A DNA stretch of 32,815 nucleotides from an uncultured Candidatus Saccharibacteria bacterium (lineage in GTDB: Bacteria > Patescibacteriota > DYJS01 > CAYMEI01): positions 1 to 32,815 of the forward strand of contig CAYMEI010000002.1 of assembly GCA_964389605.1 (NCBI GenBank), read 5' to 3'. The position numbers and the translations under genes are program-made. The notes under the pieces were generated by a model. That model was not told the origin of the DNA. It ran no database searches and saw only the letters and a list, made by a program, of their open reading frames with translations. The first letter of the stretch is position 1, and each line of letters starts with the position of its first letter. Shown here piece by piece: positions 343 to 28,406 of the stretch.

Positions 343-1707
<1,365 letters not shown>

Positions 1708-2298: not shown

Positions 2299-4872
2299 CT
2301 ACATCTCCTCTATTTTTTCCAGACCAAGAATTTCCATTAATTGAGATAGTGTGTTATAAAATAGTTGTACTTCCTGAGACCTGATCAGTCTTTCTGAGTT
2401 GTCTGAAGACAGCACTTTTATATTTGTATAAAGCCTAGAGAAACTTTTGCATAGATCAAAAGCATAATCGCAAATTCTTGAAGTGCTCAACTCTTCAAAC
2501 GCAATGGCAATAACTCTCTCAAAGTCTGCAATCTTACTCAGAAGCTCGCTTTCGTAATCAGAAAAATTGTATTCAGAGTAATCAACATTTACGGCATCCA
2601 TGCAGGCAGAACTTTTTTGCATCTTGCTTAGTATCTTTCCTGCCCGTGCAAAACTGTACAAAATATATACTCCGGTGTTTCCATCAGATTTTAAGGCCTC
2701 ATCAATATCAAAAACTATTTCTGTCTGAGAATTAAATTTAAGCATAAAGTATCTGATTGCCCCTGCAGCAATTTTTTGTGCCTGTTTTTTTATATCCTCA
2801 CTTTCAAGCCCTTCCTGCTCAAGAATCTTTTTAAATCTTTCTAAAATAACTATATGTGGTTTTCCGCTTGTGCCATCGCATTCCTGCTTTTTTTGTAATA
2901 CTTCGTCTGCATCCCCAAACTTAACTACAAATCTGCCTTTTTCATATTCATCCAGATTTTGCTCTACTTTGTCTTTGGAGTGCAGCAGAACCAGAAATCC
3001 ATTATTAATATTCAATATATCTCTAGCACCCGCCCCTTCTTTTCTGTGTATCTTTACAGCATCTCCAATTTTGCCAAGTATTGTAATATCATAAAAACCG
3101 GTTTCTTCTATTATTTCTCTTCTAAGTGCCTGCTCCAGAGACTCATCTGCATTTACCCCACCCCCCACCAGAGTAATCAACCCATCTTGCCATTCCTGGT
3201 ACGCAGTCTTGCCAGTTTTTTCATCCAGCAGAATTGCAGAAACTGTGGTCCTGGTGCTCTCATTTTCCGTCTGTTCACCAAACTCAAGTTCTTCATTAAA
3301 AATACTATCATATTTAGATAGATCTATTTTGCCTGCATCTTTGAGCTTATGAGCCATGATTTTTTTGCTCATTATCTGCAAAAGATCGTCTACTTTTATC
3401 TCAACACCTTTTCTGCCACTAAATGCAACTGATTTCTTTTGTTTTTCCTCGTTGGTTAAAACGGCTCCAAAGTCCTGTGCAGTTTCCGGACTAAGTGTCA
3501 TAAAGGCATAGCTTAAGTGGTGCATATTGTGACCATGATCAAATCCTGCAGCAATTATTGATTGCTTGACTGCATCAATTACATAATCCTGTCTGGAATC
3601 AACAACTGTTATCAGGTTTTTAGCCCCATTAAAGTTTTTTTCTTCCCCTTCTTCTTCTGAAATATAACAATCAGAACCATTTTGTTGCGTAATCAAGTTC
3701 TTATAGAATAATTGTTTTCTAAGTAGCCCAAATTTCCATAAATGAAGTGCAATATCTTTAGCGGTGTAGACTTTTATACCATTGCTTTTAACCAGCACCT
3801 TATCATCTTGTGGTTTACCACTTGAATCTTTAAGATTTTTTAAAACCCAGCAACCTGCGTTTTTGCCGTTAGTCTCGTAAGTAAAATTATCTGTTTTTTT
3901 GAGTATCTCAAATGCCTCATCCCATAAATCCAGCTTAATAATGGAGCTTTCAGAGATCATGAAGTCATAAAAAATACTAAAATTCTCCATGGTCTGTATA
4001 TGCCTTTTCAGGATTGCCTTTGTAAGTTTTTTACTGAATTCATATACAGCTCCTTCACACGATTCAATTTGCTTATGAATTTCTTCCTTAATGTCTTTAA
4101 TAAGTTCGTATTCTACCACAAGCTGTTGAATTAGTACATATACTTTTGATGCTATGTGGTCTACTTTTTCCAGCTTAGAAATACTAATTTCTCCCGGGTT
4201 TAACTTTTTAAGATAATCAACGGATGATTTTTCAGAATCAGGAATTTCAAAATTATTTAGAGATAATCCATTGATTATATTTTGAAAATCTTTTTCTTCT
4301 GCAATTGCCTGAGAAAAATAATCCTTTAAAAGCAAAAAGCCGGTAGTTATAAACACCACCTGATTGCCAAGATCATCATCATAGCTGTGAGGAACGGCCT
4401 TGTAGCCCAAAAAACTGAGTAGTCTGGTTATTGAATCGCCCAGTGTAGCATTTCTGATGTGCCCGAGGTGCAGCGCTTTGTTTGGATTTGCAGAAGTATG
4501 CTCAACCAAATAATCAATTGGTTTTGCTTTATTATACTTTGTTATTTTTTTAACAGGTTTTTTTAACAGGTTTTTCAGGAGCTCATCTTTTTTAACCCAG
4601 ATATTCAGGTAACCATTTACAAATTCAACCCTTGATACAATTGTAGAATTTACAATCTCAGACCGTAGCCGTTCATAAATATCTTTAGGGGATTTTTTAA
4701 ACTCTTTTGCAAGTTTAAACAAGATAGTTGAACTAAAATCTCCAGGCTCTGTGCCGGGCGGAATTGTAACTTCAGTTTCTGGAATAGTTGCACTGCCCTG
4801 AGTCTCCACGGGTTCCTTGATGAGTAGGTTTTTTATTGAATTGTTGATTAGATTTTTAATTTCATCCTGCAC
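2299..4872 (-). CDS. argS: Arginine--tRNA ligase (class I) with an embedded Nudix module
   Basis: GTG start. The N-terminal additional domain is ArgRS-like (GDFSSTILFKLAKEFKKSP...VNGYLNIW). The HIGH motif reads HTSANPNKALHLGHIRN, followed by YDDDLGNQV. The MSTR-like loop reads AFSGRKGVEIKVDDLL. The DALR anticodon-binding part reads AIRYFML...DGNTGVYILYSFAR, and the C-terminal residue is Met as in ArgRS generally. At 857 aa it is about 250-300 aa longer than typical bacterial ArgRS. Confidence 0.9.
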   Translation of the reverse strand: MQDEIKNLINNSIKNLLIKEPVETQGSATIPETEVTIPPGTEPGDFSSTILFKLAKEFKKSPKDIYERLRSEIVNSTIVSRVEFVNGYLNIWVKKDELLKNLLKKPVKKITKYNKAKPIDYLVEHTSANPNKALHLGHIRNATLGDSITRLLSFLGYKAVPHSYDDDLGNQVVFITTGFLLLKDYFSQAIAEEKDFQNIINGLSLNNFEIPDSEKSSVDYLKKLNPGEISISKLEKVDHIASKVYVLIQQLVVEYELIKDIKEEIHKQIESCEGAVYEFSKKLTKAILKRHIQTMENFSIFYDFMISESSIIKLDLWDEAFEILKKTDNFTYETNGKNAGCWVLKNLKDSSGKPQDDKVLVKSNGIKVYTAKDIALHLWKFGLLRKQLFYKNLITQQNGSDCYISEEEGEEKNFNGAKNLITVVDSRQDYVIDAVKQSIIAAGFDHGHNMHHLSYAFMTLSPETAQDFGAVLTNEEKQKKSVAFSGRKGVEIKVDDLLQIMSKKIMAHKLKDAGKIDLSKYDSIFNEELEFGEQTENESTRTTVSAILLDEKTGKTAYQEWQDGLITLVGGGVNADESLEQALRREIIEETGFYDITILGKIGDAVKIHRKEGAGARDILNINNGFLVLLHSKDKVEQNLDEYEKGRFVVKFGDADEVLQKKQECDGTSGKPHIVILERFKKILEQEGLESEDIKKQAQKIAAGAIRYFMLKFNSQTEIVFDIDEALKSDGNTGVYILYSFARAGKILSKMQKSSACMDAVNVDYSEYNFSDYESELLSKIADFERVIAIAFEELSTSRICDYAFDLCKSFSRLYTNIKVLSSDNSERLIRSQEVQLFYNTLSQLMEILGLEKIEEM
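2887..3252 (-). other. Nudix hydrolase domain inserted inside ArgRS (Nudix box at 3094-3162)
   Basis: Residues about 541-662. GGVNADESLEQALRREIIEETGF fits Gx5Ex7REUxEExGU at every defined position. It is preceded by the beta-strand-like TVSAILLDEKTGK typical of the Nudix fold. Confidence 0.75.
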
Positions 4873-5019: not shown

Positions 5020-5275
5020 CACAGATAATTTAAATACTTGTAACACAGCATGCTTGGATCGGGTACGATTTGCTGCTGAAGGTGGCAAAAAAGCCACCAT
5101 TGCAGGATGAAACCGGGGCAGGTCACAACTCACCGTGCATATCCAAAAATTAATAGCCTCTTTTGATACCCCCACTCTTACCCACAATCCATTTAAGAGT
5201 GGGGAACAAAAACTCCTGCCCCCTGCTACGCTCCATCTTTACTACAGGGGCGGACCTGCGTGTCCCCCTTTTTTT
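5020..5275 (+). ncRNA. Candidate small structured RNA (three strong hairpins, the last terminator-like)
   Basis: Hairpin 1 is 5074-5105: GGTGGC-A6-GCCACC with a flanking CTGC/GCAG extension. Hairpin 2 is a perfect 11-bp stem, CCCCACTCTTA 5170-5180 with TAAGAGTGGGG 5194-5204. Hairpin 3 plus a T7 run is at 5247-5275. A weak promoter-like TTGCAG-15 nt-TAAAAT lies at 4991-5017. No known RNA family recognised. Confidence 0.25.
5247..5275 (+). terminator. Intrinsic-terminator-like hairpin plus T7
   Basis: GGGGCGGAC (5247-5255), loop ctgcgt, GTCCCCC (5262-5268), with one bulged C, followed directly by TTTTTTT (5269-5275). No protein gene lies upstream on the + strand. Confidence 0.4.
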
Positions 5276-5327
5276 AGAGTATTATTGCAGACACAAACAT
5301 GCGTATCCACCCAACACTGTTCTGATC

Positions 5328-5510
5328 TTTATTACAGGGGCGGGGTTCTCCCACCCTTAATATCTAATTATGTTACTGCAGGGGCGGACCCGTGTCCGCC
5401 CTCCTGTAGTGTACAGTTACTATATAACTACTATATAACTTTTTTATCTTTTTAGATATTTAAAGGTTTCTAGTTTTAGGGGGCAGAAGAACCCCGCCCC
5501 TGCAGTAGTT
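5328..5510. repeat. GC-rich palindromic repeat cluster, a MITE-like unit bounded by a 15-bp perfect inverted repeat
   Basis: CAGGGGCGGGGTTCT at 5335-5349 is the exact reverse complement of AGAACCCCGCCCCTG at 5488-5502. The pair encloses a 15-bp bulged hairpin at 5375-5410, whose core is GGGCGGAC/GTCCGCCC. It also encloses an 11-bp tandem duplication, actatataact x2, at about 5419-5440. Confidence 0.55.
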
Positions 5511-6172: not shown

Positions 6173-7255
6173 ATGAAAATAGCTTCAAGGGTTTTTCTTG
6201 TATGTGTGTGTGCTTTTTCTTTGAGTGCATGCCAGTTTAAATCAAGTCAGCCAAAAGAAGAAGATAATAATAAAAAGACTGAAGTCAGGGAGCCAAAAGA
6301 GCTTCCTTTTGATGTTTTGACCCAGAATATGTTGATTGATCCAAAAGAATCAACTGAAAGTACACAAGAGATAGAAGATATAAAGGAGCAGGTTGTGAGT
6401 CTTTTAGATTCCAGTGTCTCTGATCCAATCTTTTCTTTTAGCCATTCTCCTGTGCTGGATCAGACGTTGATCGCTGTTGGATCTGAGTCAGATAATTCTC
6501 CAGAAGATAAATACAAAAAGTTTAGAGCAATATTTTTAGCCAACAGGAGACTGGATTTAGCCAAAGTTCTTGAGTACGAAGATGAAGATGAATTCTTGAT
6601 TAATCCTGTTTTTTCTGCTGATGGTATAAGCGAGATTGGATGGTTTGCATTTAATAGAGAAAGGGAGCAGACTGCTAGGAGGATCAGTGTTTACAGTATA
6701 GAAGGGAGCATGCTTACAGAATATGATATTTTACCACCTTCTGGTGTGTATATGGATCACTACGATCTGGCTGTTTTTTCTGATCAGTTCATATTTAAAA
6801 CAGACAGGGTGCAGAAACCTTTTGCAAATACAGTTTTTACTAGGGCATTCAGGAATACTCTTCAGCTAAACCCGGTACCGCTGATTTTTAACTCTGATGC
6901 TTATCCACAAGTGCTCCCGGTAGGGAACCCAATACTTTTTGAAAAGTTGATTGGATATAGAGAAATATCTCAATCTGAGCAGGAGATATTTTATTTTCTA
7001 AGATCAGACAACAGATTTTATTTAATTTCTCAGATATTGTCTGACACGCCAGAGTTAAGTGTACTGAGCACCTTTGACGGAGAAAGTATATCAGGAAACT
7101 CTGAATTAGCTGTAGACAGGGGTGTGTATTTTGTGATTAATGATCTAACCGAGAAGTCAACCTTTTATTTTTTTAGAAAAACATCGGGGGATTTAATAGA
7201 AATGGATTATGATATGGAAAAGTATGGAGAAAATTTTACAATTATAAATTCTTAA
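6173..7255 (+). CDS. Putative lipoprotein, function unknown
   Basis: 360 aa. The signal peptide has lipobox FSLSAC (Cys20). The mature N-terminus is acidic and low-complexity. It starts 2 nt after the rplK stop. Confidence 0.6.
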   Translation: MKIASRVFLVCVCAFSLSACQFKSSQPKEEDNNKKTEVREPKELPFDVLTQNMLIDPKESTESTQEIEDIKEQVVSLLDSSVSDPIFSFSHSPVLDQTLIAVGSESDNSPEDKYKKFRAIFLANRRLDLAKVLEYEDEDEFLINPVFSADGISEIGWFAFNREREQTARRISVYSIEGSMLTEYDILPPSGVYMDHYDLAVFSDQFIFKTDRVQKPFANTVFTRAFRNTLQLNPVPLIFNSDAYPQVLPVGNPILFEKLIGYREISQSEQEIFYFLRSDNRFYLISQILSDTPELSVLSTFDGESISGNSELAVDRGVYFVINDLTEKSTFYFFRKTSGDLIEMDYDMEKYGENFTIINS

Positions 7256-10895: not shown

Positions 10896-13800
10896 ATGAA
10901 TGAGCAAACTAATCAAAATAATACCAATAATACCAAAGAAGTGTCAAATTTTTTTGTAAAATGGACTAGATTTTTTGTAGATAAGTAGCGACTGACCATC
11001 ATACTTATTGCAACCATTACACTGGCTGGATCTTTTGGTGTTGCATCTAATCAGAGGCAGGATTTTCCAACTATTCCAACAAATTTTATACAGGTTACCT
11101 TAACCTACCCGGGTGCATCTTCTGTTGATGTAGAACAGCAGGTTGTAATACCGGTTGAGCAGGTTTTAAAAGATGTTGATCATGTAGAGAAAATAAGATC
11201 TAACGCATCAGATAATTTTGCGGCACTGTTTATAGAGATGGGTATTTTTGATACAGGTGATCTAACTGATGCTGCTGATAAAATGACAGCAGAAATAAAC
11301 AAAGTTAATTTACCTTCAGATGTTGATTTTAATGTTGAGTCTATAGAAGCAGGTGGGCCTACAATAGCTGTTGGGCTGGTGTCTGATGAAAATAGAACAA
11401 ACAAGGAGCTTTTGCAGATAGCTTCGGATATAAAGGCAGATATAGAGGCATCTTCTAATGAAATCAGTCATGTAGATATTGCTCCGGACGATAGCTTTAA
11501 GGTTAACATAGTCCTGGATCAGCAGATGTTAACACAGAACCAGCTGAGCCATAGTGCAGTTTCAAGTACAATTCAGTCTTATATATCTTCTCTTCCTAGT
11601 GGAAGTATAAAAACAGAGGAGGGTGTGGATGAATCCATTAATATAAATGCACCTGCCCAGAATATTGAGGATATAGAGAATATTTTAATAGGCGGAGTAA
11701 GGCTTAATGACATTGCTCAGATTGAAAGAATACCCGTAAATTCAGAAAATATAACATTTGCAGGCTTCTTGGAAGATGGAAAAGGGGTTGCAAAAGAGTC
11801 TGTATATATGGAGATTTATAAAACAGACCAAGGTGATTCAATTAATATTTCTAATGCAGTGCTAGATACCATAGATAGTCTGAAAAAAGCAGGAGATATT
11901 CCAGACGATGTAAGAGCTGTTACTTTATTTGATTCGGCACCAAGTGTTGAAAAACAGATCACTGATTTACTGGGAAGTGCTTCTCTGGGTCTGGTACTGA
12001 TTTTGGTTGTACTCCTTTTCTTTATCAATTTCAGGGCAGCTGTTGTTGTTGCCACGATTCTACCTCTGGCTTTTCTGGCTACACTTTTTACGCTGTATGT
12101 TATTGGCTTTACTATTAATATTCTAACTCTTTTTGCCATGATTCTCTCTCTGGGAATTTTAGTAGATAATGCAATTGTTATTACAGAAGGAATTGTTTTT
12201 GAGCTGGAAAAAGGCGTTTCCAAAAGAGAGGCAACCCTCAGGGCACTTAAAAACCTTGGGCCAGCCGTTACCACAGCAACAGCCACAACTTTGGTTGTAT
12301 TTATTCCTTTTGCCAGTGTTGGCGGCATAATGGGAGAATTTATTAAGTATATTCCTTATACCATAATCATTATGCTGATAATATCTTACTTTCTGGCTAT
12401 TTCTATAACTCCATTATTTGGAAAATGGCTTTTAAAAGAAGAGGAGGGTGGCAAAAAGATGGAAAGCTGGCATAAATATCTGGTATTTCCTTTAGTAGTA
12501 AAATATGGACAAAAAGGTATAGATGATATTGCAAATGGGTACAAAAAATTAATTTACAGAGTACATAAACACATTATACCAAAAACTGTTACTTTGGTGC
12601 TGTCAATAATTTTAATTTTTGGGAGGCTTTTTAGTGTTGGACAACTCAAGGGAGAGCAGATGCCCTCGGTGGATAGTTCTTTGCTGCTTGTTACTTTTGA
12701 ATTCCCAACCGGTACTACTTTTGAAACCAGAAAAGAAGTTGTATCAAAAGCTCAGGAAGAAATTGTGGATATACCATTTTTCCAGACATCTCTAAATTTT
12801 CCAACCGGAGAAATATACATTACCATAGAAGAACCCACAGAAAGAAGAGGGGAAGACCTAGATGGTTTTGATGTTGCAGAACAGCTGGATAAAGATTTAC
12901 AGGGTATAGCACAAGAGTATGAAGGAGTAAGGATAAATGCTGGTCTGGCTGGTTATGGTCCTCCTGCAAGTGAATATGATGTTACTTTGGAAATAAAAGA
13001 TAATGATCTTTTAGACTTGGAGAGGGTTTCGGGTGAAATTAATGAATTTGCTGAAAGTAGAAATGATATAGAAAGAGTGATAAACGGATACACCGACAGA
13101 CTGGTATCTTCTGTAGAAGTTGATTTTATTGATCAGGCTTTAAGTGATAGAGGTATAAGTAATTTGCAGGCTGCAGGTGCCATAAGGTCTGTTTTTTCCA
13201 GCGAAGAGCTGGGGAGAGTTACCGTCAGGGATGATGGCGTTTCGGACAGGGTGTATATTGAATTTTCAGATGAGGCTAAGAATTCTTTAGAAGATTTAAG
13301 GATGCTGCCAGTTGCGCCTAGGACAGTTTTGTCTGATATTGCAGAAATTGACTAGGTAGAAAAACTTAATTCTATAATCAGGCTTGAAGGGTGGAGGGCT
13401 ATACAGATAGACTTTGCCTTAAAGGAAGATGCTGACTCTGTTGAATTTCAGGGGCAATTAGAGGAGTTTTTGGGGTTCAAAAGAGAGAACGGAGCCTTAC
13501 AGATAGACAATAATGGCAGGGTTAGTGAGCTGGGACTGGATGGGGGAGCAGATAGTATTTCTTTTGGTGGATTTCAGGCGGATGTCTAGGGGGACCAATG
13601 ATGATTTAATACTGGTTTCACTTTTAGCAATGATTGCTGTTTATATTATTCTAATTAATCAGTTTAATTCATATGTAAAACCTGCACTTATTATGCTTGT
13701 AGTAGTTACTGCATTTTCTGGCGTTTTCCCTGGTCTGTTTATATTTGACGAGTCAATAAATCTGGTGTCAGGGTTGGGTATAGTTGCCTTGATTGGTATT

Positions 13801-14181
13801 GCGGTTAACGATGCCATTGTATTTATTGATACACTGCAAAAGAAAAGAAAAGAAGAACCAGAAGCGGAGCTTAGCGAAATTCTGGCAGAGACTGGAAGAT
13901 TAAGATTTAAGCCTATTCTGTCTACAACTCTTACCACAATTCTGGGTATACTGCCTTTAGCCATAACAGACCCATTCTGGAGGGGGCTTGGGATAAGCCT
14001 TATATTTGGGCTAATATTTTCTACTGTTGCTACTCTTGTAATCATGCCAACAGTGTACAAGGCTTTTGTGTGGTTTTGGGCTAATGCTGTATTAAAACCT
14101 GCCGATAAGGTATTCAAAAAGGATTTTTCACAAAAATATAAAATGACCACCCTTGGTTCAGAGGGTAAGCAGGGTCGTTAA
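10896..14181 (+). pseudogene. RND-family (AcrB-like) efflux permease, interrupted by in-frame TAG codons and one frameshift
   Basis: One frame runs from ATG 10896 (NFFVKWTRFFVDK-TAG-RLTIILIATITLAG...YPGASSVDVEQQVVIPVEQ) straight into track ORF 11238-13355. It continues stop-free for 77 codons past TAG 13353-13355. It then needs a +1 shift near the G5 run (about 13584-13592) to join ORF 13513-14181, which carries TM7-12 (QFNSYVKPALIML, GIAVNDAIVFID, RLRFKPILSTTLTTILGILPLA). Total length is about 1,095 codons, typical for RND. Confidence 0.75.
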
Positions 14182-14270: not shown

Positions 14271-14928
14271 TAAGCAAGAGTGAGCTGTAAAAGAATAATT
14301 TTACACCCTATCTAACCACAAACCCTGATTTATTTTTAGAATTCACCACTTTCACAGATCGTGTAATCAAGAATAATCTTGTAATACAGATATCCCATTG
14401 CTTTATGATTATACTAAATATACTATAATAGGTAGAAAAGCAGGTTATTCCAAGAGTAGTAAAAGATGGTTCATATATCGGAGAGAGAGCAGTTTATAGG
14501 GGACTATGCTAGGAGAGGAACAAGAGCTGAGCAACCCTCTGCCCTAACGGAAAGATTACATGCGAGGTTTATGAACCACTTTTTTGCGTTGCTAGTTTAT
14601 AACAAATTACGCAAATCCGGATGGAGTGTAAAAGAGTGCTTCGATTTTCTTGCAATGGGTAAAGACCCAGAAACAGAGAAACTGCACAGTGTCCGCGAAG
14701 AGATGGGTATTCCAAAGATGGTCCCTCTGGGGGGTTATAGTTGCATTTATTGATACAGTAAAAAAGGATAGGGATGTTAGTCTGCAAGAGCGGTATGAAG
14801 AGTTTTTGCGTTACTCGGTTCCAAATAGAGAGGTTAGAAGAAAACTATCTGAGGAGCATGATGTAAAACCCAGAGAGCTTGATGGGATTATCAGGAATCA
14901 GTCGGGAGAGCAGAACCGTTCTCTTGTT

Positions 14929-15129
14929 GAACTGGTGAGCAATGCAATTGATTACTCAGAAGAGGGTGGAGCTGTAGATGTTGAGCTACAGGAAAGTGGT
15001 TTTACAGTAAAAGATAGTGGCAAGGGTATGAGTCCTAAGCAGATTTTTGAGCGTCTGCTTATCCCTAAGTCTTCTGGCTCGGCAGCTGAGGAGGATAATA
15101 CAATTGGGCGGTTTGGTATGGGGTTCTAT
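14929..15129 (+). other. GHKL ATPase module 1 (Bergerat fold motifs)
   Basis: N box ELVSNAIDYS, G1 box VKDSGKGM, G2 box GRFGMGFY. The in-frame TAA lies 6 codons after the G2 box. Confidence 0.75.
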
Positions 15130-18100
15130 ACAGCGCTATCGCACCTGTAAAACGAGGGGGATACTCTGATTGTTTATACTCATAATGGAACTGCTGGATA
15201 TGAGATACATTTTGTGCTTCAGGATGGAGAGATAAAGGTATTCACAAGAGAAAACAATGACCTTGAGCAGGGGACGACTGTTGCTTTGAATGTGCAGGAG
15301 TTTAACAGAGCAGATGCAGATTGGATTGTTAAGGATTATATGCGATACAACCGAAATGCTGAAGTAAGGCTTGGTGGTGAGAGTGTTGGTGTGGCTGATA
15401 GTATGAAAGCGGTAGAGGTTGAGTTTAACGAAGGCGGCAAGAATGCGCTACTTTACCGCAACCGTGAAGAAGGAAACACTGAACCATGCGAGGTAACTGT
15501 TTGTGTGCACGGTGTAAAGATAGAAGGGATTCTGGTAGAAGGAGAGAATCTTCCTGCCGAGGTGGTTCTTGATCTATCAAGAGTTATTGGCTTGGCAGAG
15601 AACCGTGGAGAGATAGCTGTTGATAGTAAAGCAGTTGAGGCTGTGAAACAGTTAACTGAAGTTGTTACAGCGCAGGAAAACCCGATACCTCTTTTTAATG
15701 CACTTTACCCACTGGTAGCAAAACTACAAAAGCGCGAAAGAACACGGCTAAAAGAGAATAATATGGTTGAGCTACTGCAGAGTAGTGCCCGTGAATTTTT
15801 CCCAGACAGTAAAACACTTGTTCCTAACGCTCCAGAATTTCAGATGCTTGCTATAGAAGATGCAGTGTATGTACACCCCGGACTTCACAGGGTAAACTAT
15901 CTTGAGCTCCCTGGTGTTGAGCGGTGCAGTGGTTTTCAGTCAGAAACTCACACTGTTTACCTGGTTGATTTGGTATAGGGTGCCTCAGATGTTGTGCTTG
16001 AAGCTCCAGATCACAAAGTCTTTTTACTTGATAGGGCAGTTTATGAGAGACACAAATCAACTCCAACCCTTCTTGATCTTTACCTGAATTTGGGCAGGCG
16101 GGAGAAGGTGGGGAGTTTTGTGCCATATATTGAGCGGAGACGCGCTGAGACTGGGGAGCAGACTGTTACAGATACCACTGCTCCTGAACTGCAAGGAGTT
16201 TCTGTAGCGGCAGGTGGTGAGCAAGCTACCGATGTTACAGGAGAAAAAAACAAAAGTAACCGAAACTGAAAAACAAGAAGGCTGGGTTTTACCGGAAAGT
16301 CTTCTGGTAGAGCATTATAGAATGTTTCAGAAAGCTGCGAATCTATCCCCCATAGGATATGGAGAACTGCTTTCAGTTAGTGAAATATGGGCCGTCTATA
16401 GACCAGATGATTGGGGTATTCCCGATTATCTGTGGGGAAGGTCTGATTACCATAGTGTTCCAGCCGAAGAGATGGATGAAGGTGCGGAATTAAGGATGCA
16501 GAGCTTAAGAGCATTCTATGCATTTTTTCGGAAGAGACTTTTGTTGAATTTGCGAAGTATACCAAAGAAGAAAGAAGGAAGCAATTTATTGCCCGAATGA
16601 AGCAACTTCTCCCCAGTATTTATGGTCTTTTTAAGCCAACCATAAGATATAACCAGGAAACCAAGGAGAAAGAAATTGATAAATCAAGCGAAGAAAGGGT
16701 AAGTAGATCACTGGCATTTATTGAAGATAATAAGAGAGTTGATATAAAGAAGGTTTTTGAGAATGATTTTATTAATAATAATTTTAACTGGGCAATTGAG
16801 TTCTTTTTAGGTTATCTTGAACACATAGACAGGCTTAGAAGTGTGCATCCAGAGAATAGACCGGTTTTTGAGCTAGTCTTTTCCCATCAGAGAAGGCTCG
16901 GCATAACCGGCGATCGCTACAGTAACTACGAGGATAAACTGGCAGATCTTAGGAGAAACTGCACTCGCGATTTCCCTTTCACCAGGCAGTTTTGTGAAGA
17001 GGCTTTACGCCCGGCGCTTAATTCACCATTTATTAACGCAGGAGACCTCTTTGCGCAACTGGGTTTTGTTGGTGAAAAAATAACAGAGTTTAAAGAGACT
17101 ATACATAGGGTCAGATTAATGGAACAGGTAGTAGCTGAGCTAAATACAAAAGGTTTTACAGGTGATATTGGTATTAGAGATCTTTATGACAGTTCAGATT
17201 TAAGCGGAAAAGCCAAAGAGATACTCATTATGATGAGTCATGAGAAAGACGATAAGGAAAGAGGAAAGAGTAAGCATGGAAGAGGTGATAAAGGGTTAGC
17301 AATGCATGGCGGGAGAGAAAAACTGATCTCATATAGTGAAATAGTCTATGATCTGGAGCATCAGAAGAGAAAACTTGCTAGTATGAAGAGAGAGGTTGAA
17401 GGGGCTGAAGGTTTTAAAAGTGGTGTCGGGCAGTTTGGAAGCAATTTAAGCAGATTTCTGCAGATGCCAGAGCTAAGGAGTTTGGAGGGGCAGATGCTGC
17501 CAAACCAGATGAGTCTGTTTTCCTGTGTTGAGTTCAAGAGAGAGAAAAAGCATCGAAAATATGAGTATGAGCAAGTATTCCTGACTAACCCTGTATATTG
17601 TGGGAGCCAGGAGTTCTCTGATAAGCGTTTGCAGATAATTAACGATACAATAAAGAGGCATTTTTGTATTGATATACAGCAATATAACCAAAGGAAACGC
17701 CTTGAATTATACTTACAACGAACCTGGAAAGCGCTGGGATTGTCGGATGAAACTTTTGCACGAATCAATGATGTACTGGTAATAGCTGGAGAAAGAGATT
17801 TGCATGAAGTGGTTTATAATGAAGATTATATGCAGGAAGTGGTTGCCCAGCTGGGTGATCTATACACTCCAATAATAGTAGTAGACTACCTTGAATTTTT
17901 TGGTGGAATTGCGAAAAACAATACTGAAGGGCTACTGGGAGATCTGAATGCCAAGGCGCTTTCACTCTGGAAGCATCTTGTAAAACTTTCACCCGAAGAA
18001 TACGAACGCGTAAAGAGTCATGCAAGAATGCGACCCAACTATGGTGCTGAAGATTACTACTATTTCAGATCTCTTGATGTACCACCTCGGGATATTCCCC

Positions 18101-18399
18101 GCGAAATACGAGCATATGTTCTTTATATGAGAACACCCAATCCAGAACTTCTAAACTACAAGCCTGACGATCATTACGATATATCTCTTGACGAGTATGG
18201 AGGTAAGTCTCAGTTATCAGATCTATCTGTTGCAAAGTCAGGTAATCAGAGAAGATTTATGGGATTCAACGGAACTCCCAAAGAGCTACAGCAGTTAGTT
18301 GAGCAGGAGAGCGATGGTAAGGATACTGAAATTGTCAGGCGAGAGATTATACACGCTATGAGCTATCTATCTGTTAATGATGGCTATCTGTTTATCCGT

Positions 18400-18729
18400 G
18401 AGTTAATCAGCAACAGTATTGATGCTATTAAGAAAACAACAGAGTCAGAGGTGAGCAAGAAAGAAGGAGACTTCTCTTTGCAGGACTGGGTAAAAAGCGC
18501 AAAGATGCTGCTAAAAAGCCTCAGAAGGCGAAACAGAGATGACCCGGAGGTTAACCGGACTGTTCATATTGAACACTTTATGCAAGCAAGAGAAGATGAG
18601 CAAGATAGGTTGATTGTTGTTGCACAAGATGGTGTAGGTATGACCTTCCGGGAAGTTATTAACTATCTTTTAGTGCGGGGAGAGCGCAGTAGTTCTGAGA
18701 AAGGAAAGTTTGGGCAGAAGTTTTTTACA
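18400..18729 (+). other. GHKL ATPase module 2
   Basis: N box ELISNSIDAI, G1 box VAQDGVGM, degenerate G2 box GKFGQKFFT. The downstream segment (GIVIDLPTGIELIVSGNDIA) parallels module 1 (EVVLDLSRVIGLAENRGEIA). Confidence 0.65.
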
Positions 18730-20008
18730 GTTCTCCAGGGCGCAGAAGAGGTGTTTGTTAAAACAGGGGTTGGTGATGGTCAGGTGACTTACTGTAAACT
18801 TGTACCACAGTACGACGAGCATGATCAGATAGTTGATGTGTTAGTTGAGTACGACATAAGAAATGAAGCAGATTTCAAGGGTACTGTGATCCAGAAAGTA
18901 GTTAAAAGTGATTTCCCGGAGATGGAGGCGGCGCTACTGAAGGACGCCACAATAACTTACGGTGGGCTAGTTGATGGAAACCTTGTTAGGATTGATTATG
19001 GAGGTGAACAGATTAACCAGCCACAAGGGGTTCTTGCTCAAAGAAACCTGCCTGATTTTGGAGAACTGAAAATATACGATGCATCAGAGGATGCAGTGAC
19101 ACAGAACGGTATATTTGTTCGTGATCTTGGACCAGAGTACTTTCTGGGTGTTCCGACTCATGTACAGAAGGCACTTACAGATCACGGTATTGTTATTGAT
19201 TTACCAACCGGAATTGAACTTATAGTTTCGGGGAACGATATAGCAGGACCAGTTAAGGAAAAAGTTTTTTCACTACTACAAGATGCGATACCAGTTTTGG
19301 CTATGCAAAGCTATCTACGGCTTTTTGCAAAAGGGGCGATAAACCTGGATAGTTTGCCATATGACTTTTTTTCACAGGGAGAAGAACAGCTTATCTTTTA
19401 TAAGACAAAAAATTGACAAAGCAGTTCAGGATGATGCAGATCGCATCAGCAGAGGTGAGACGATAAAAAACTACGACAGATACTTTGATGAAAATAACTT
19501 TGTACAGCTACTTACCCTTATCCCTGGAATAAGCGTAGGTGATGAAGTTCTATCTTTACTGGAGATTGCCGAAAGAACAGCTTTAGGAGAGGAGCTTGAC
19601 CTGCCGCCTAGAATTGAATGGATGATTAACCAAGCAAAAGACCATCGTGAGCGGATTGAAAGACAAGAAGCAGCCTTTAGGGAAGAAGGGAAGAGAGAGG
19701 TTAGGGACTTTTTTGTTCAGGGTGTAGATAAAGAACAGCTGGGTGTTTATTATGTACTGGATATTGCAACAAAACTCCTGTGTTCAATTATGGGTAGTGA
19801 TGACATCCAGATATCCTACTATCTGAAACCCGATGGATCGATGGCACATGCCGCAAGGGTGACATATACAGAGGGTGACGAGACCAAAGAACTGAAATTG
19901 ATTGGGTGGAATCTTCTAGCTACAGATACACTAGACTATATTGAGGCAGTGCTTAAGAAACAGAATCCAACTGCACACCAGCGACATGAGTTCTGGGATA
20001 CAGTTCCA

Positions 20009-22855: not shown

Positions 22856-24145
22856 GTGAGTTTAGAAACTGGTATTTTATCTGAAGAACAAAAACAGGCG
22901 CTTGATATTATAAAAAAAGGGGGGAATATATTTATTACAGGAGGGGCAGGGACGGGTAAATCATTTTTATTAAATTATTTAAAGCAGGAGTTTGATAAAA
23001 AACTGCATGTTACTGCATCTACAGGAATAGCCGCTGTAAATGTTGGGGGTACCACCCTTCACTCATGGGCATCTCTTGGGATTGGAAAGTCTGATCCGTC
23101 CAGCATTGCAAACCGTATAAAAAGGAACTTTGCTGTTTCTCAGCGGGTAAGGTTTGCACAAATGGTGGCCATTGACGAAGTTTCTATGATTTCAGCTGAA
23201 CTTTTGGATAAACTGGACCAGGTATTAAAAATTGTAAGACAAAACAACTATCCTTTTGGGGGTATACAACTGGTATTATTTGGAGATTTTTTGCAATTAC
23301 CACCTGTTTTTAAAGGTAACACCAGTGAAGGTTTTTTTGAGGAGCTAAATGAGTACTCGTTTGAATCCAGATCATGGGCAGAGGCTCAGGTGAATTCTGT
23401 AGCTTTAAAATACATGCACAGGCAGAAAGACAGTACATTCATAAATCTACTAAATAATTTAAGAGTCGGGAAGCTGAACTCGGGGGACATAGATATATTA
23501 AATTCTAGAACTAAAGCAAAAATTGATATAGATTTAAAGCCAACAATTTTAACAACCCACAACTTTCAGGCAGATATTGTAAATAAAACAGAGCTTGAGA
23601 AAATTAAAGCTAGGACGCTTGTTTTTAAGGCTAGGCAGGAGGGCGAGGAAGGTTTTCTGAGCTTTTTAAAAAAGAGCATAATGGTTCCGCTTGAGTTAAG
23701 ATTAAAAGCAGGGGCACAGGTTATAATGCTTAAAAATACTTATCAGGATTTAGGTATCATTAATGGTTCCAGGGGGGAGATAGTGAGTTTTGAGTCTGAT
23801 AGTTCTTTTCCTGTGGTTAAATTTTTAAATGGGCAGACGATAACTGTCTCTCCTGAAGAATGGAGGTATGAAGAATTAGATAATTACGGCAGAAATCAGA
23901 CAAAGGCTTTAATAAAGCAAATTCCATTAAGACTTGCATATGCAATTACTGTACATAAATCTCAAGGGATGACACTTGAGGCAATTGAATGTGATCTTGG
24001 CAGGTCTTTTAGCGAAGGGCAGGTTTATGTTGCACTTTCCAGGTCTAAGACAATTGAGGGGGTGTTTTTGAAAAGTTTTGACCATGGTCTGGTTAAAGTA
24101 AACCAGAAAGCCTTGAGTTTTTATGAACATCGGAGTTTAATATAA
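22856..24145 (+). CDS. PIF1/RecD-family SF1 DNA helicase
   Basis: 429 aa. The GTG start is required because the first internal Met lies after Walker A. Motifs: Walker A GGAGTGKS (22941-22963), Walker B VAIDEVSM, FGDFLQLPPV, AITVHKSQG and YVALSRSK. Confidence 0.85.
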   Translation: MSLETGILSEEQKQALDIIKKGGNIFITGGAGTGKSFLLNYLKQEFDKKLHVTASTGIAAVNVGGTTLHSWASLGIGKSDPSSIANRIKRNFAVSQRVRFAQMVAIDEVSMISAELLDKLDQVLKIVRQNNYPFGGIQLVLFGDFLQLPPVFKGNTSEGFFEELNEYSFESRSWAEAQVNSVALKYMHRQKDSTFINLLNNLRVGKLNSGDIDILNSRTKAKIDIDLKPTILTTHNFQADIVNKTELEKIKARTLVFKARQEGEEGFLSFLKKSIMVPLELRLKAGAQVIMLKNTYQDLGIINGSRGEIVSFESDSSFPVVKFLNGQTITVSPEEWRYEELDNYGRNQTKALIKQIPLRLAYAITVHKSQGMTLEAIECDLGRSFSEGQVYVALSRSKTIEGVFLKSFDHGLVKVNQKALSFYEHRSLI

Positions 24146-25937: not shown

Positions 25938-28406
25938 TTACCCAATCTTGCCAACTCTTTCTTCTATTTCTCTTTCAATAGTCTGTCTGTCTACACCATA
26001 TTTCAGCTTACTCATCTGCTTAATCAGCTCTCCAAGCTGTTCACTGGAATCTGCCTGAATCGGGATTGTTCCAAAAGAAAAAGGCTTACTCTGTGTTCCA
26101 CCAACCATTAATTTTGCAAATACGCTTCTGTTAGGCAGGTTGGCAACATCGTTTTTGTCAAAGTATCCAGGAAATAGCTCTGCTATTTTTTCTGCATCTT
26201 CCACACCAACACGCATAGCCAGAATAGATCCAACATTTCCAAAAACAGCAGACAGGATTTTTTCGTCAATCTGCTTGGTGTACTGATGAGCAATTGTTAA
26301 AGACAGCCTGTACTTACGAGCTTCTGACAAAATGGCAGAAAAGGAATCTGAGGCAAAGTTCTGGAACTCATCAACATATAAAAAATGAGGCTTCCATGGC
26401 TTGGGCTTGCTGACTCTTTTAAAAGCACCCGCCAGAAGTTTTGCCACAACAATCATACCTACAAGACTCATGCTAAACTCTCCAAGCCTTCCTTTATTTA
26501 AATTACAAAGCAGAATTTTGCCTTCATCCATGACTTCTTCAAAATCAAAGGCTGATCTTGACTGTCCAATAATGTTTCTCATAAGCGGAGAAGATATAAA
26601 TCTACCAAACTTAGACAAGACCCATGGGATAAGTTCACCTTTCATGTTTCCGGATGTCTTTTTAACTTCTACTGTCCAGAACTGTTTAACTAGGAAGTTT
26701 TTGATACTTTTAGAAACCTGATCCTGAAATGCATCATCAGCAATAAGTCTTGGCATTTCAACCAGCGTTCTTGGCTCTTCAGATGATTCATCCTCCATTA
26801 GGGCAATAAGACCATTTCTTGTCCAGTGTTCAAACATAGGACCCATGCTTTGAGAGTCAAAAAGTTTTCCCAAAATAGCTAAAAATTCCTGAACATTGTG
26901 GTCTTTTTCCTGTTCTGTTGACCACTCAAAAATATTCAGCCCCATTGGATAATCTATATCTGCAGGATCAAAATAAATCACATCATCTATTCTTTCTTTT
27001 GGGATGTAAGTTAAAATATCCTGCACATCTTCTCCGTGTGGATCCAAGTAGGTTATTCCATATCCAGCTTTAATATCGGAAACCATCATCTGCTTTAAGA
27101 GCGTTGATTTACCTGTACCAGTCTGACCAATTACATATACATGCCTGAATCTGTCTTCCAGACCAATTGTTATGTCTTTTTCCTGACCCCTGAATATACT
27201 TTTCCCGATCAGGGTTCCGCCAGGGTCCATACCCAAGGGTGGAATTGCCCCTTTACTGGGTAGCCACTTAATATCTGGCGTAGTAATAAACTTATTGGGC
27301 AGGTGAAACATGGTTGCAAGCTCTTCTGAGTTTAAAATGGATGTATTATTTAAATTATGGTTACGCATAACCATATCTGATATTAACCTAAAGCTTGTTT
27401 CTTTAGTTTTTTTAAGCCTATTGAATTCCGGATGAGCAAATTGTGCAAAAATACCTTCTATATTTTCCAGTTTTGATTTGGCATCAATTTCGTTGTCAGA
27501 TATTATTGCAAATCTTACTGCAGAGGAGAACCCAAATTTGGAAGATTTTTCGCTAATTGCTTTTATCCTTTCTTCGTCCAAGGGTGTAAGTCTTTGTTTT
27601 TCCTGTTTTTCCTCTGTCTCTCTTTGCTTTTTTTCCTGCTCTGCACTTCCATCTGTGTCTGTCAATTTAGCACTGTTTACAAGTTCTCCAAAAAAGCCAA
27701 AGGTTGATTTCATAAATTTATCTACAACGGTATTACTCTCTTCGTATTCTCCTTTTTGTATTTTCTTGATTGTCTCTCTTGCAGAACTTCTCCACATTTG
27801 ATTATCCACAGGTTTAAAAATCAGTTGTACAAAGGCACCGTCAATACCCTTCATGCCTGAAATTGCAGTTGTAAGGCTGTTCAGCGGGTCATATTCTAGG
27901 TTTTTATAGGTTTTTAGTGGAAGCAGAGATTCTTTTTCCAGTTTCATTTCGGCGCACTCAACAACCCCCCCCCCAGAAAATATATTATGATCATCTTCTC
28001 TTTCTGTTACTTTACAGTCGGGGTATACAGAATATATCTGCTTTATAAGATAATTCTTGAATTCCTTTCTGACAGTAAAGAAGAAGCTAAGCTCCTCCTT
28101 GTGGCTGATAATTTCAAAACTGACTACTGGCTCTGTTCTGGTTTTGAATATGTTTTTAACTTTATTTTTTCTAAAAATACTCCATAAGTTGCTGTAAAAA
28201 GGCTCAACTGATGCAAGGACTGTTTTCAGGTCCTGTTTTTTTGTTTCTTCGTTTTGGGCATCTTTAGGGCTGTCCACCTGTAACACAACAAGTTCCAGGG
28301 TGCTTTGCATGGTTGTTGATTCTTTGCGCTTAATCTTAAAAAAAATAAATAAAGAAGTAGTAATTACTAAGAGAGCAGTAATAATCAATGCAATTAAAAT
28401 ATCCAT
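25938..28406 (-). CDS. VirD4/TraG-like coupling-protein ATPase (FtsK/HerA superfamily) with an N-terminal TM anchor and an uncharacterised domain of about 400 aa
   Basis: 822 aa. N-terminal TM helix (ILIALIITALLVITTSLFIFF). Walker A VIGQTGTGKST (about 27103-27129). Walker B FLYVDEFQNFA. ARKYRLSLTIAHQY is typical of T4CP/TraD C-terminal modules. Confidence 0.6.
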   Translation of the reverse strand: MDILIALIITALLVITTSLFIFFKIKRKESTTMQSTLELVVLQVDSPKDAQNEETKKQDLKTVLASVEPFYSNLWSIFRKNKVKNIFKTRTEPVVSFEIISHKEELSFFFTVRKEFKNYLIKQIYSVYPDCKVTEREDDHNIFSGGGVVECAEMKLEKESLLPLKTYKNLEYDPLNSLTTAISGMKGIDGAFVQLIFKPVDNQMWRSSARETIKKIQKGEYEESNTVVDKFMKSTFGFFGELVNSAKLTDTDGSAEQEKKQRETEEKQEKQRLTPLDEERIKAISEKSSKFGFSSAVRFAIISDNEIDAKSKLENIEGIFAQFAHPEFNRLKKTKETSFRLISDMVMRNHNLNNTSILNSEELATMFHLPNKFITTPDIKWLPSKGAIPPLGMDPGGTLIGKSIFRGQEKDITIGLEDRFRHVYVIGQTGTGKSTLLKQMMVSDIKAGYGITYLDPHGEDVQDILTYIPKERIDDVIYFDPADIDYPMGLNIFEWSTEQEKDHNVQEFLAILGKLFDSQSMGPMFEHWTRNGLIALMEDESSEEPRTLVEMPRLIADDAFQDQVSKSIKNFLVKQFWTVEVKKTSGNMKGELIPWVLSKFGRFISSPLMRNIIGQSRSAFDFEEVMDEGKILLCNLNKGRLGEFSMSLVGMIVVAKLLAGAFKRVSKPKPWKPHFLYVDEFQNFASDSFSAILSEARKYRLSLTIAHQYTKQIDEKILSAVFGNVGSILAMRVGVEDAEKIAELFPGYFDKNDVANLPNRSVFAKLMVGGTQSKPFSFGTIPIQADSSEQLGELIKQMSKLKYGVDRQTIEREIEERVGKIG
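27966..27974. repeat. C9 (G9 on the coding strand) homopolymer inside the VirD4-like gene
   Basis: aacaaCCCCCCCCCagaa encodes FSGGGVV. It is the longest G/C run in the window and sits in an AT-rich genome. Confidence 0.9.

Follow-up and report, generated by a model that had tools for sequence, protein, structure and literature searches.

The window analysed here, a stretch of 32,815 nucleotides (nt) of contig CAYMEI010000002.1 from an uncultured Candidatus Saccharibacteria bacterium, contains a gene for arginyl-tRNA synthetase (ArgRS) that includes a Nudix domain within its reading frame. We consider it probable that this gene, here called argS-Nudix, encodes a bifunctional protein, in which a canonical class Ia ArgRS carries a complete Nudix pyrophosphohydrolase domain together with a conserved linker, inserted in frame into a length-variable surface loop. 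The initial annotation of the window had described a single uninterrupted argS frame of 857 codons, and the list of open reading frames (ORFs) confirms this: the frame lies on the minus strand and is unbroken across all 857 codons. The same annotation knew of no ArgRS with an internal Nudix domain. Full-text searches of the literature likewise revealed no report of a Nudix domain in ArgRS or in any other aminoacyl-tRNA synthetase (aaRS). As far as we found, the nesting of a pyrophosphohydrolase within a class I synthetase is a new architecture made from two well-known families.

Four Pfam families were recognized in the one protein of 857 amino acids (aa): Arg_tRNA_synt_N, tRNA-synt_1d, NUDIX (PF00293) and DALR_1. 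The three ArgRS families scored above their gathering cut-offs, and the last three of the four are those for which a search with hidden Markov models (HMMs) had been proposed. The argS equivalog model TIGR00456 of NCBIfam matched with 288.7 bits (cut-off 261.65), while NF002447 reached 367.7 bits and stayed under its cut-off of 460 because the insert splits the match. An alignment with seven normal ArgRSs showed that H135, G137, H138, S485, G486, R487 and G489 are invariant, and the last four of these residues are invariant across 73 sequences as well. A model of the whole protein, built by AlphaFold2 (AF2) on a 73-sequence alignment, had a mean predicted local distance difference test value (pLDDT) of 87.5 and a predicted template modelling score (pTM) of 0.85, with the helix bundle of the DALR domain modelled at pLDDT 85–98. 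When this model was compared to known structures by Foldseek, ArgRSs ranked first (Pyrococcus horikoshii 2zue_A with E=1.6e-37 and a TM-score on the target, TMt, of 0.84; 1iq0 with E=4.8e-34). By sequence and model, the ArgRS part is a canonical, intact class Ia synthetase, and charging of tRNA-Arg is predicted.

Canonical ArgRSs (about 620 aa; NF002447/TIGR00456; 2zue, 1iq0) have the same core as the window protein, consisting of the Add1 domain, a Rossmann domain with the HIGH motif and a MSxRKG-type loop, the stem-contact helix and the DALR bundle, at 33–38% sequence identity and structural TMt values of 0.82–0.84. They lack the 183 aa Nudix insert, and also a second lineage-specific insert of about 40–50 aa, which follows just after aa 181 in the catalytic domain (aa ~183–232, window position ~4177–4326). 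AF2 predicts aa 191–230 of this second insert as helical with pLDDT 74–84. Another long ArgRS, P0212, apparently has a large insert in the same part of the catalytic domain.

The boundaries of the Nudix insert were taken from an alignment with seven other sequences and then from one with 71 ordinary ArgRSs plus the relative P0121 (72 in all; see below). The insert starts 24 residues past the invariant SGRKG loop and stops at the first DALR helix. It comprises 183 aa, and not about 120 residues as had been estimated. The insertion site is a surface loop between the helix that follows the SGRKG loop and the first helix of the DALR domain; ordinary ArgRSs have a short loop at this junction. HMM match, predicted fold and structural matches all agree on a complete Nudix module within an otherwise intact ArgRS, at the surface junction between catalytic part and DALR domain that the initial annotation had placed here. 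In three ArgRSs (P0212, P0163, P0248) the loop at the junction, judged by eye, is apparently longer, so that the site seems to tolerate extra length. The segment originally marked out as a complete module, positions 2887–3252, corresponds on the minus strand to aa 541–662 and contains the textbook Nudix box GGVNADESLEQALRREIIEETGF, as claimed. It covers most of the Nudix fold, but omits the N-terminal linker (aa 514–538) and the C-terminal helices (aa 663–686). The features of the gene are listed in Table 1.

Table 1. Features of the argS-Nudix gene and protein, with protein identity and nonsynonymous divergence (pN) relative to contig L001, which encodes P0121.
Feature	Residues (aa)	Position in window	Strand	Evidence	Identity with L001	pN
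argS-Nudix gene, 857 codons + stop, GTG start		2299..4872	minus	ORF list, TIGR00456, Pfam, AF2, Foldseek
ArgRS N-terminal (Add1) domain	4–91	4600..4863	minus	Pfam Arg_tRNA_synt_N, E=2e-14
Class I catalytic (Rossmann) domain + stem-contact helix	102–513	3334..4569	minus	Pfam tRNA-synt_1d
HIGH motif HLGH	135–138	4459..4470	minus	Invariant columns in ArgRS alignment
Catalytic flank	436–513				67%	0.207
KMSKS-equivalent loop SGRKG	485–489	3406..3420	minus	Invariant columns in ArgRS alignments
Whole insert, 183 aa	514–696	2785..3333	minus	Absent from all other ArgRSs aligned except P0121	62%	0.261
Conserved N-terminal linker KIDLSKY..IFxEELEFGE	514–538	3259..3333	minus	Short helix + short strand; conserved with L001
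Nudix fold proper	539–686	2815..3258	minus	AF2 secondary structure, Foldseek, pN		0.242
Nudix box GGVNADESLEQALRREIIEETGF	571–593	3094..3162	minus	Regular expression Gx5Ex7REUxEExGU
Invariant acidic loop VEQNLDEYEKG	636–646	2935..2967	minus	11/11 residues identical in L001
DALR anticodon-binding domain	697–857	2302..2784	minus	Pfam DALR_1, E=6.8e-19 (aa 737–857)	54%	0.316

The box fits the Nudix pattern at each defined position, and a six-frame search of the window gave no second match; the chance expectation for a protein of this composition is about 4e-7 matches. PF00293 matched aa 541–604 of the 857 aa protein with E=9.4e-9 and 35.8 bits, compared to a gathering cut-off of 21.1. In the AF2 model, the box helix (579–591) is flanked by mixed-sheet strands at 539–550, 556–560, 569–572, 596–601, 606–612, 617–630 and 649–653 and by two C-terminal helices (655–665 and 668–686), as expected for the alpha/beta/alpha sandwich of Nudix proteins, in which the box lies on a loop-helix-loop. 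pLDDT is 72–88 over most of the fold core, about 62–67 at aa 601–620 and about 60 in the N-terminal linker. The linker forms a helix at 518–525 in the whole-protein model and an additional strand in a model of the insert only, at pLDDT values of only about 60–70. The acidic loop 636–646 is the only segment of the whole-protein model with pLDDT below 50.

The insert-only model was built from two sequences, showed the same topology as the whole-protein model and had a pLDDT of 79. Already with the whole-protein model, Foldseek reported after the ArgRSs local matches of the insert to Escherichia coli RppH, the Aquifex diadenosine tetraphosphate (Ap4A) hydrolase and a MutT/nudix protein. With the insert model, 557 matches in the PDB had E<=1e-3, and all 50 matches listed were Nudix-fold proteins. 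Their alignments span about 150–178 columns against entire Nudix enzymes of 133–165 aa with TMt values of 0.68–0.78; top matches were RppH (6vcq, E=1.3e-8, TMt 0.70), the Aquifex enzyme (3i7u_C, TMt 0.78) and the MutT/nudix protein of Enterococcus faecalis (2azw, TMt 0.72). According to these models the insert is a complete, autonomous alpha/beta/alpha Nudix lobe, in line with the autonomous fold anticipated in the initial annotation.

When 1.84 billion cluster representatives were searched exhaustively with HMMER, one relative of the window protein emerged, P0121, with 59% identity. One alignment covers aa 450–857 of the window protein, insert included, with only five gapped positions, and the insert sits at the same two junctions in both proteins. 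P0121 is encoded on L001, a metagenome contig of 1753 bp from the Joint Genome Institute (JGI; sample 3300037317, Ga0401364_0111225). At the 5′ end of the contig its ORF is still open in the ArgRS frame, and we therefore regard it as a full-length ArgRS-Nudix gene cut off by the contig end, in an assembly independent of that of the window. The NUDIX match is stronger in P0121 than in the window protein (E=5.6e-12, 46.2 bits, profile positions 21–119 of 134). The source names P0121 merely “ADP-ribose pyrophosphatase YjhB (NUDIX family)”, a generic label of the COG collection, for a protein that is the C-terminal half of an ArgRS.

As listed in Table 1, nonsynonymous divergence between the window gene and L001 was determined separately for the insert and its flanks. 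Synonymous divergence (pS) was about 0.8 and thus saturated in every region. Within the 23-residue segment aa 570–592, scored for the Nudix box, 20 residues are identical in L001, 12 of them encoded by different codons; in the linker (aa 514–540) 19 of 27 residues are identical. The best-conserved blocks outside the box are KIDLSKY, IFxEELEFGE, VEQNLDEYEKG and DGTSGxPHIV. The GC content at third codon positions (GC3) is 0.306 in the insert and 0.313 in the remainder of the gene. These data indicate that purifying selection on the insert is as strong as on the ArgRS domains, and that the Nudix-in-ArgRS arrangement already existed before at least two Patescibacteria lineages diverged. We also considered that the insert might derive from an intein or a mobile element and rejected this, as no endonuclease or other extra domain is present and GC3 equals that of the host gene.

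In order to get an idea on the spread of the arrangement, several collections were searched. The architecture is rare: of the 150 best ArgRS cluster representatives of the HMMER search, two have the insert, namely the window protein and P0121. The other 148 have no insert of Nudix size: 142 are not longer than 691 aa, and the six of 713–935 aa carry other extensions and gave no NUDIX match when scanned. The next-closest ArgRSs (600–690 aa, identity of 38% or less) lack the insert, and the lineage-wide distribution considered in the initial annotation is therefore not seen. PF00293 was absent from the precomputed domains of all 120 matches that a word-index search returned for the whole protein. 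This search missed P0121, so the index is lossy for ArgRS-Nudix proteins. A word-index search with the insert alone yielded 153 candidates, none of them significant. Scanning of metagenome contigs with the peptide patterns KIDLSKY and IF[NS]EELEF, or with a degenerate DNA pattern for RREIIEETGFYD, found nothing. The scan of species-representative genomes gave as its only match a Nudix-like one in a metagenome-assembled genome of Clostridia (L002, 27% identity over 82 aa), and neither of these scans of metagenomes and species-representative genomes produced further ArgRS-Nudix genes. An exact look-up of the window protein led to no other contig, and the window protein and P0121 are each a singleton cluster at 90% identity.

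The genes near argS-Nudix are chromosomal housekeeping genes (atpD, rplK, greA, recX, sufB, dnaB and a gene for a penicillin-binding protein, PBP). Identities of the window's AtpD are 76–78% with metagenome proteins, 74% with a protein of Candidatus Dojkabacteria, and 66–68% with proteins named Moranbacteria, Moraniibacteriota, Parcubacteria or Patescibacteria group, one match being labelled Pseudomonadales. Among the closest atpD relatives (76–78% identity), argS is not located beside atpD. The sequence data place the host of the fusion in the Patescibacteria (candidate phyla radiation, CPR), and the fusion appears to be confined to a narrow sublineage of this group.

If the protein is bifunctional, as we favour, the ArgRS core would charge tRNA-Arg independently of the Nudix lobe, and the lobe would be catalytically active beside it. 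The glutamates of the REx2EE sequence on helix 579–591 would bind Mg2+, and the lobe would cleave a diphosphate bond in a compound of the type nucleoside-5′-(poly)phosphate-X, while the flexible acidic loop 636–646 may add contacts to metal or substrate. Several points speak against this view. An intact-looking box does not always mean an enzyme, as certain Nudix domains of this kind serve as ligand sensors. The insert is carried by two sequences only, and conservation at the level of single residues therefore resolves little. In sequence searches of the PDB, the likeness to characterised Nudix enzymes was limited to the first strands and the box, and no Nudix subfamily model came near its cut-off. 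Finally, with linkers at a pLDDT of about 60, the models give no firm placement of the lobe against the path of the tRNA or the active site of ArgRS.

We compared the protein to the signatures of individual Nudix subfamilies. All NCBIfam subfamily models gave about 20 bits or less on the 857 aa protein, at cut-offs of 95–449. For RppH the models scored about 12–20 bits against 116–259 (best NF001938, 20.3 bits versus 116), and the NudC model NF001299 scored 20.5 bits versus 158. NudC proteins have a SQPWPFPxS motif after the box, which is not in the sequence. Hydrolases of diadenosine polyphosphates (ApnA) have, by a subfamily rule that Dunn et al. reportedly formulated in 1999, a tyrosine about 16–18 residues past the box; at +16 to +18 after F593 the window protein has H609, R610 and K611, and neither tyrosine nor another aromatic residue. 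ADP-ribose pyrophosphatases have a proline about 15–16 residues past the box, and there is no proline between aa 594 and 672. A coenzyme A (CoA) motif of the FPGG type is absent upstream of the box. The Foldseek E-values for RppH, MutT-like proteins, NudI, NudG and Ap4A hydrolases lie within about two orders of magnitude. The structural neighbours lean to the RppH/Ap4A-hydrolase group in a flat ranking. Since the subfamily signatures are lacking and the ranking is flat, no substrate is assigned. Provided that the domain is active, the candidate we would name first, with rather less than even confidence, is a dinucleoside polyphosphate or another free housekeeping nucleotide, the fusion simply ensuring that, in a reduced genome, the domain is expressed together with translation functions. 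Such free-nucleotide hydrolysis, with fusion for co-expression in a small genome, is the most economical reading. A different nucleotide, e.g., (p)ppGpp, ADP-ribose or an oxidised nucleoside triphosphate (NTP), is possible with lower probability, and an RNA or tRNA 5′ end offered by the tRNA-binding platform of ArgRS would be an unlikely substrate.

The last option would make the lobe an RppH-like RNA 5′-end pyrophosphohydrolase or decapping enzyme that acts on ArgRS-bound RNA, e.g., by converting a 5′-triphosphate or a Np4 or nicotinamide adenine dinucleotide (NAD) cap to a 5′-monophosphate, and that couples 5′-end status to aminoacylation. The top structural neighbours are structures of E. 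coli RppH, some of them with bound RNA or Ap4A (4s2y, 6d1v, 7sp3), and RppH models are among the best, though weak, NCBIfam matches. The host protein binds RNA, and the conservation of the linker suggests a fixed geometry. However, the Foldseek ranking does not discriminate among Nudix subfamilies, the scores of the RppH models (about 20 bits) are far from their cut-offs of 116–259, and mature tRNA is already 5′-monophosphorylated after RNase P processing. Moreover, the insertion at the junction of stem-contact helix and anticodon-binding domain is distant in sequence from the pocket for the acceptor end. We consider this explanation improbable. An extension of it, in which an aaRS-tethered 5′-end enzyme processes triphosphorylated or capped tRNA-Arg or other ArgRS-bound RNA, so that aminoacylation and 5′-end maturation or surveillance are physically coupled in reduced-genome Patescibacteria, would be distinctly improbable. 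The initial annotation had suggested that the module might clean up by-products of the synthetase, that is, Ap4A or related dinucleoside polyphosphates made by the same enzyme. Nudix enzymes are established Ap4A hydrolases (PMC13627108). Ap4A hydrolases from Aquifex (3i7u), lupin (1f3y) and Chlamydia (CT771, 4mpo) are indeed among the close structural matches of the insert, but the aromatic ApnA marker is missing, with H, R and K at +16 to +18, and no subfamily model is near its cut-off. ArgRS activates arginine to Arg-AMP only when tRNA is present, and Goerlich et al. are said to have found no detectable Ap4A synthesis by ArgRS in 1982, so that a clean-up in cis would have no source of Ap4A. 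We regard self-clean-up as very improbable and as the weakest version of the suggestion; cleavage of Ap4A made by other synthetases would fall under the favoured explanation.

A non-enzymatic role was weighed as well. The Nudix fold could have been kept as a ligand sensor or as a structural or RNA-binding lobe, comparable to NrtR or AraR, through which a nucleotide metabolite modulates ArgRS. Nudix-fold regulators do exist, and AraR (5bs6) is among the weak sequence matches; a conserved linker and an insertion beside the anticodon-binding domain would suit allosteric coupling, and the regions for substrate specificity are unlike those of any characterised enzyme. On the other side, every catalytic position of the box (REx2EE, both glycines and the hydrophobic positions) is kept unchanged in the two lineages although their synonymous sites are saturated, whereas regulatory Nudix domains usually have degraded boxes. 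We give this explanation a small chance. That the insert is an assembly chimera, a mis-joined contig or a decaying pseudogene would be in line with a 90% cluster of one sequence from one contig and with contig scans of metagenomes and genomes that gave no close relatives. However, the insert recurs with the same two junctions, at 59% protein identity, in an independent assembly of a different sample, the frame is unbroken, GC3 is alike inside and outside the insert, and pN is far below pS. This conservation pattern of a functional domain in two lineages rules out a chimera, the explanation that the initial annotation had said might overturn its finding, and we consider the chance of any such artefact negligible.

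The favoured bifunctional architecture can be compared to known systems. E. coli RppH (NudH) and the Ap4A hydrolases of Aquifex and lupin share the fold with the insert over nearly their whole length (TMt 0.68–0.78), with the same box helix and catalytic glutamates. The sequence identity is only 15–18%, and the known enzymes stand alone whereas the insert is nested. Particular to the insert are the invariant acidic loop VEQNLDEYEKG and the lack of an aromatic residue at +16 to +18 past the box. NadM-Nudix (nicotinamide mononucleotide adenylyltransferase/ADP-ribose pyrophosphatase, 2qjo), which is among the Foldseek matches, likewise joins a Nudix domain to a nucleotidyl-transferring Rossmann enzyme. 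The Nudix domain of NadM-Nudix is at a terminus and its partner acts in the same NAD pathway, while in the window protein it is nested, with no known link of its pathway to arginylation. The editing domains of aaRSs (CP1 of LeuRS, IleRS and ValRS, INS of ProRS, B3/4 of PheRS) also add a second hydrolytic domain to a synthetase, several of them as insertions in loops of the core. The substrates of editing domains are aminoacyl esters or adenylates, and their folds are unrelated to Nudix, whose chemistry concerns diphosphate bonds; to our knowledge ArgRS has no need for editing. One of the six long ArgRSs mentioned above, P0175 (935 aa, from outside the window), has an N-terminal B3_4 domain, the editing-type fold of the PheRS beta subunit (PF03483, E=5e-26), and shows that ArgRS can acquire extra domains.

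It is mainly through extra domains that aaRSs acquire editing and non-translational functions. With an active Nudix lobe, tRNA charging and the hydrolysis of nucleotides or RNA ends would be combined in one polypeptide. The gene also represents a clear case of selected in-frame domain nesting in streamlined Patescibacteria genomes. The naming of P0121 as an ADP-ribose pyrophosphatase illustrates that annotation pipelines can miss the ArgRS of an organism.

Some further features of the window were recorded. The intergenic region between argS and rplK contains, at 5239–5507, a GC-rich repeat, TTACTRCAGGGGCGGACC, in four direct copies with a spacing of 43–47 nt, and an inverted copy at 5494–5507; the 27 nt arms are 81% complementary. 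The repeat overlaps a spurious-looking ORF (5135..5455) with “LYYRGG” repeats. Rfam gave no match at 5239–5507, and a clustered regularly interspaced short palindromic repeats (CRISPR) array was rejected since the spacing is too short. The repeat may be an element resembling repetitive extragenic palindromes (REP) or miniature inverted-repeat transposable elements (MITE), or a structured RNA. Directly after rplK (L11), where rplA (L1) is usually expected, an ORF for 360 aa (6173–7255) has no Pfam or NCBIfam match.

A transporter of the AcrB/resistance-nodulation-division (RND) type appears to be distributed over two ORFs about 160 nt apart, at 11238–13355 and 13513–14181, that cover positions 97–781 and 859–1020 of the ACR_tran profile; the first ~96 profile positions are missing. 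A frameshift, a split gene or an unusual architecture could explain the pair. An ATP-binding domain of the GHKL/HATPase_c_3 (sacsin-like) type is encoded in an ORF of 166 aa at 14650–15150. The ORFs that come next (254, 128 and 939 aa; 15214–15978, 16214–19416) have no family matches, the 939 aa ORF being faintly similar to an HSP90/HtpG-like ATPase. A Pif1 helicase is encoded at 22856–24145 and a STAND/HerA-like NTPase at 25938–28406. The GHKL ORF group, the NTPase and the helicase may together form a conflict or defence-type cluster.

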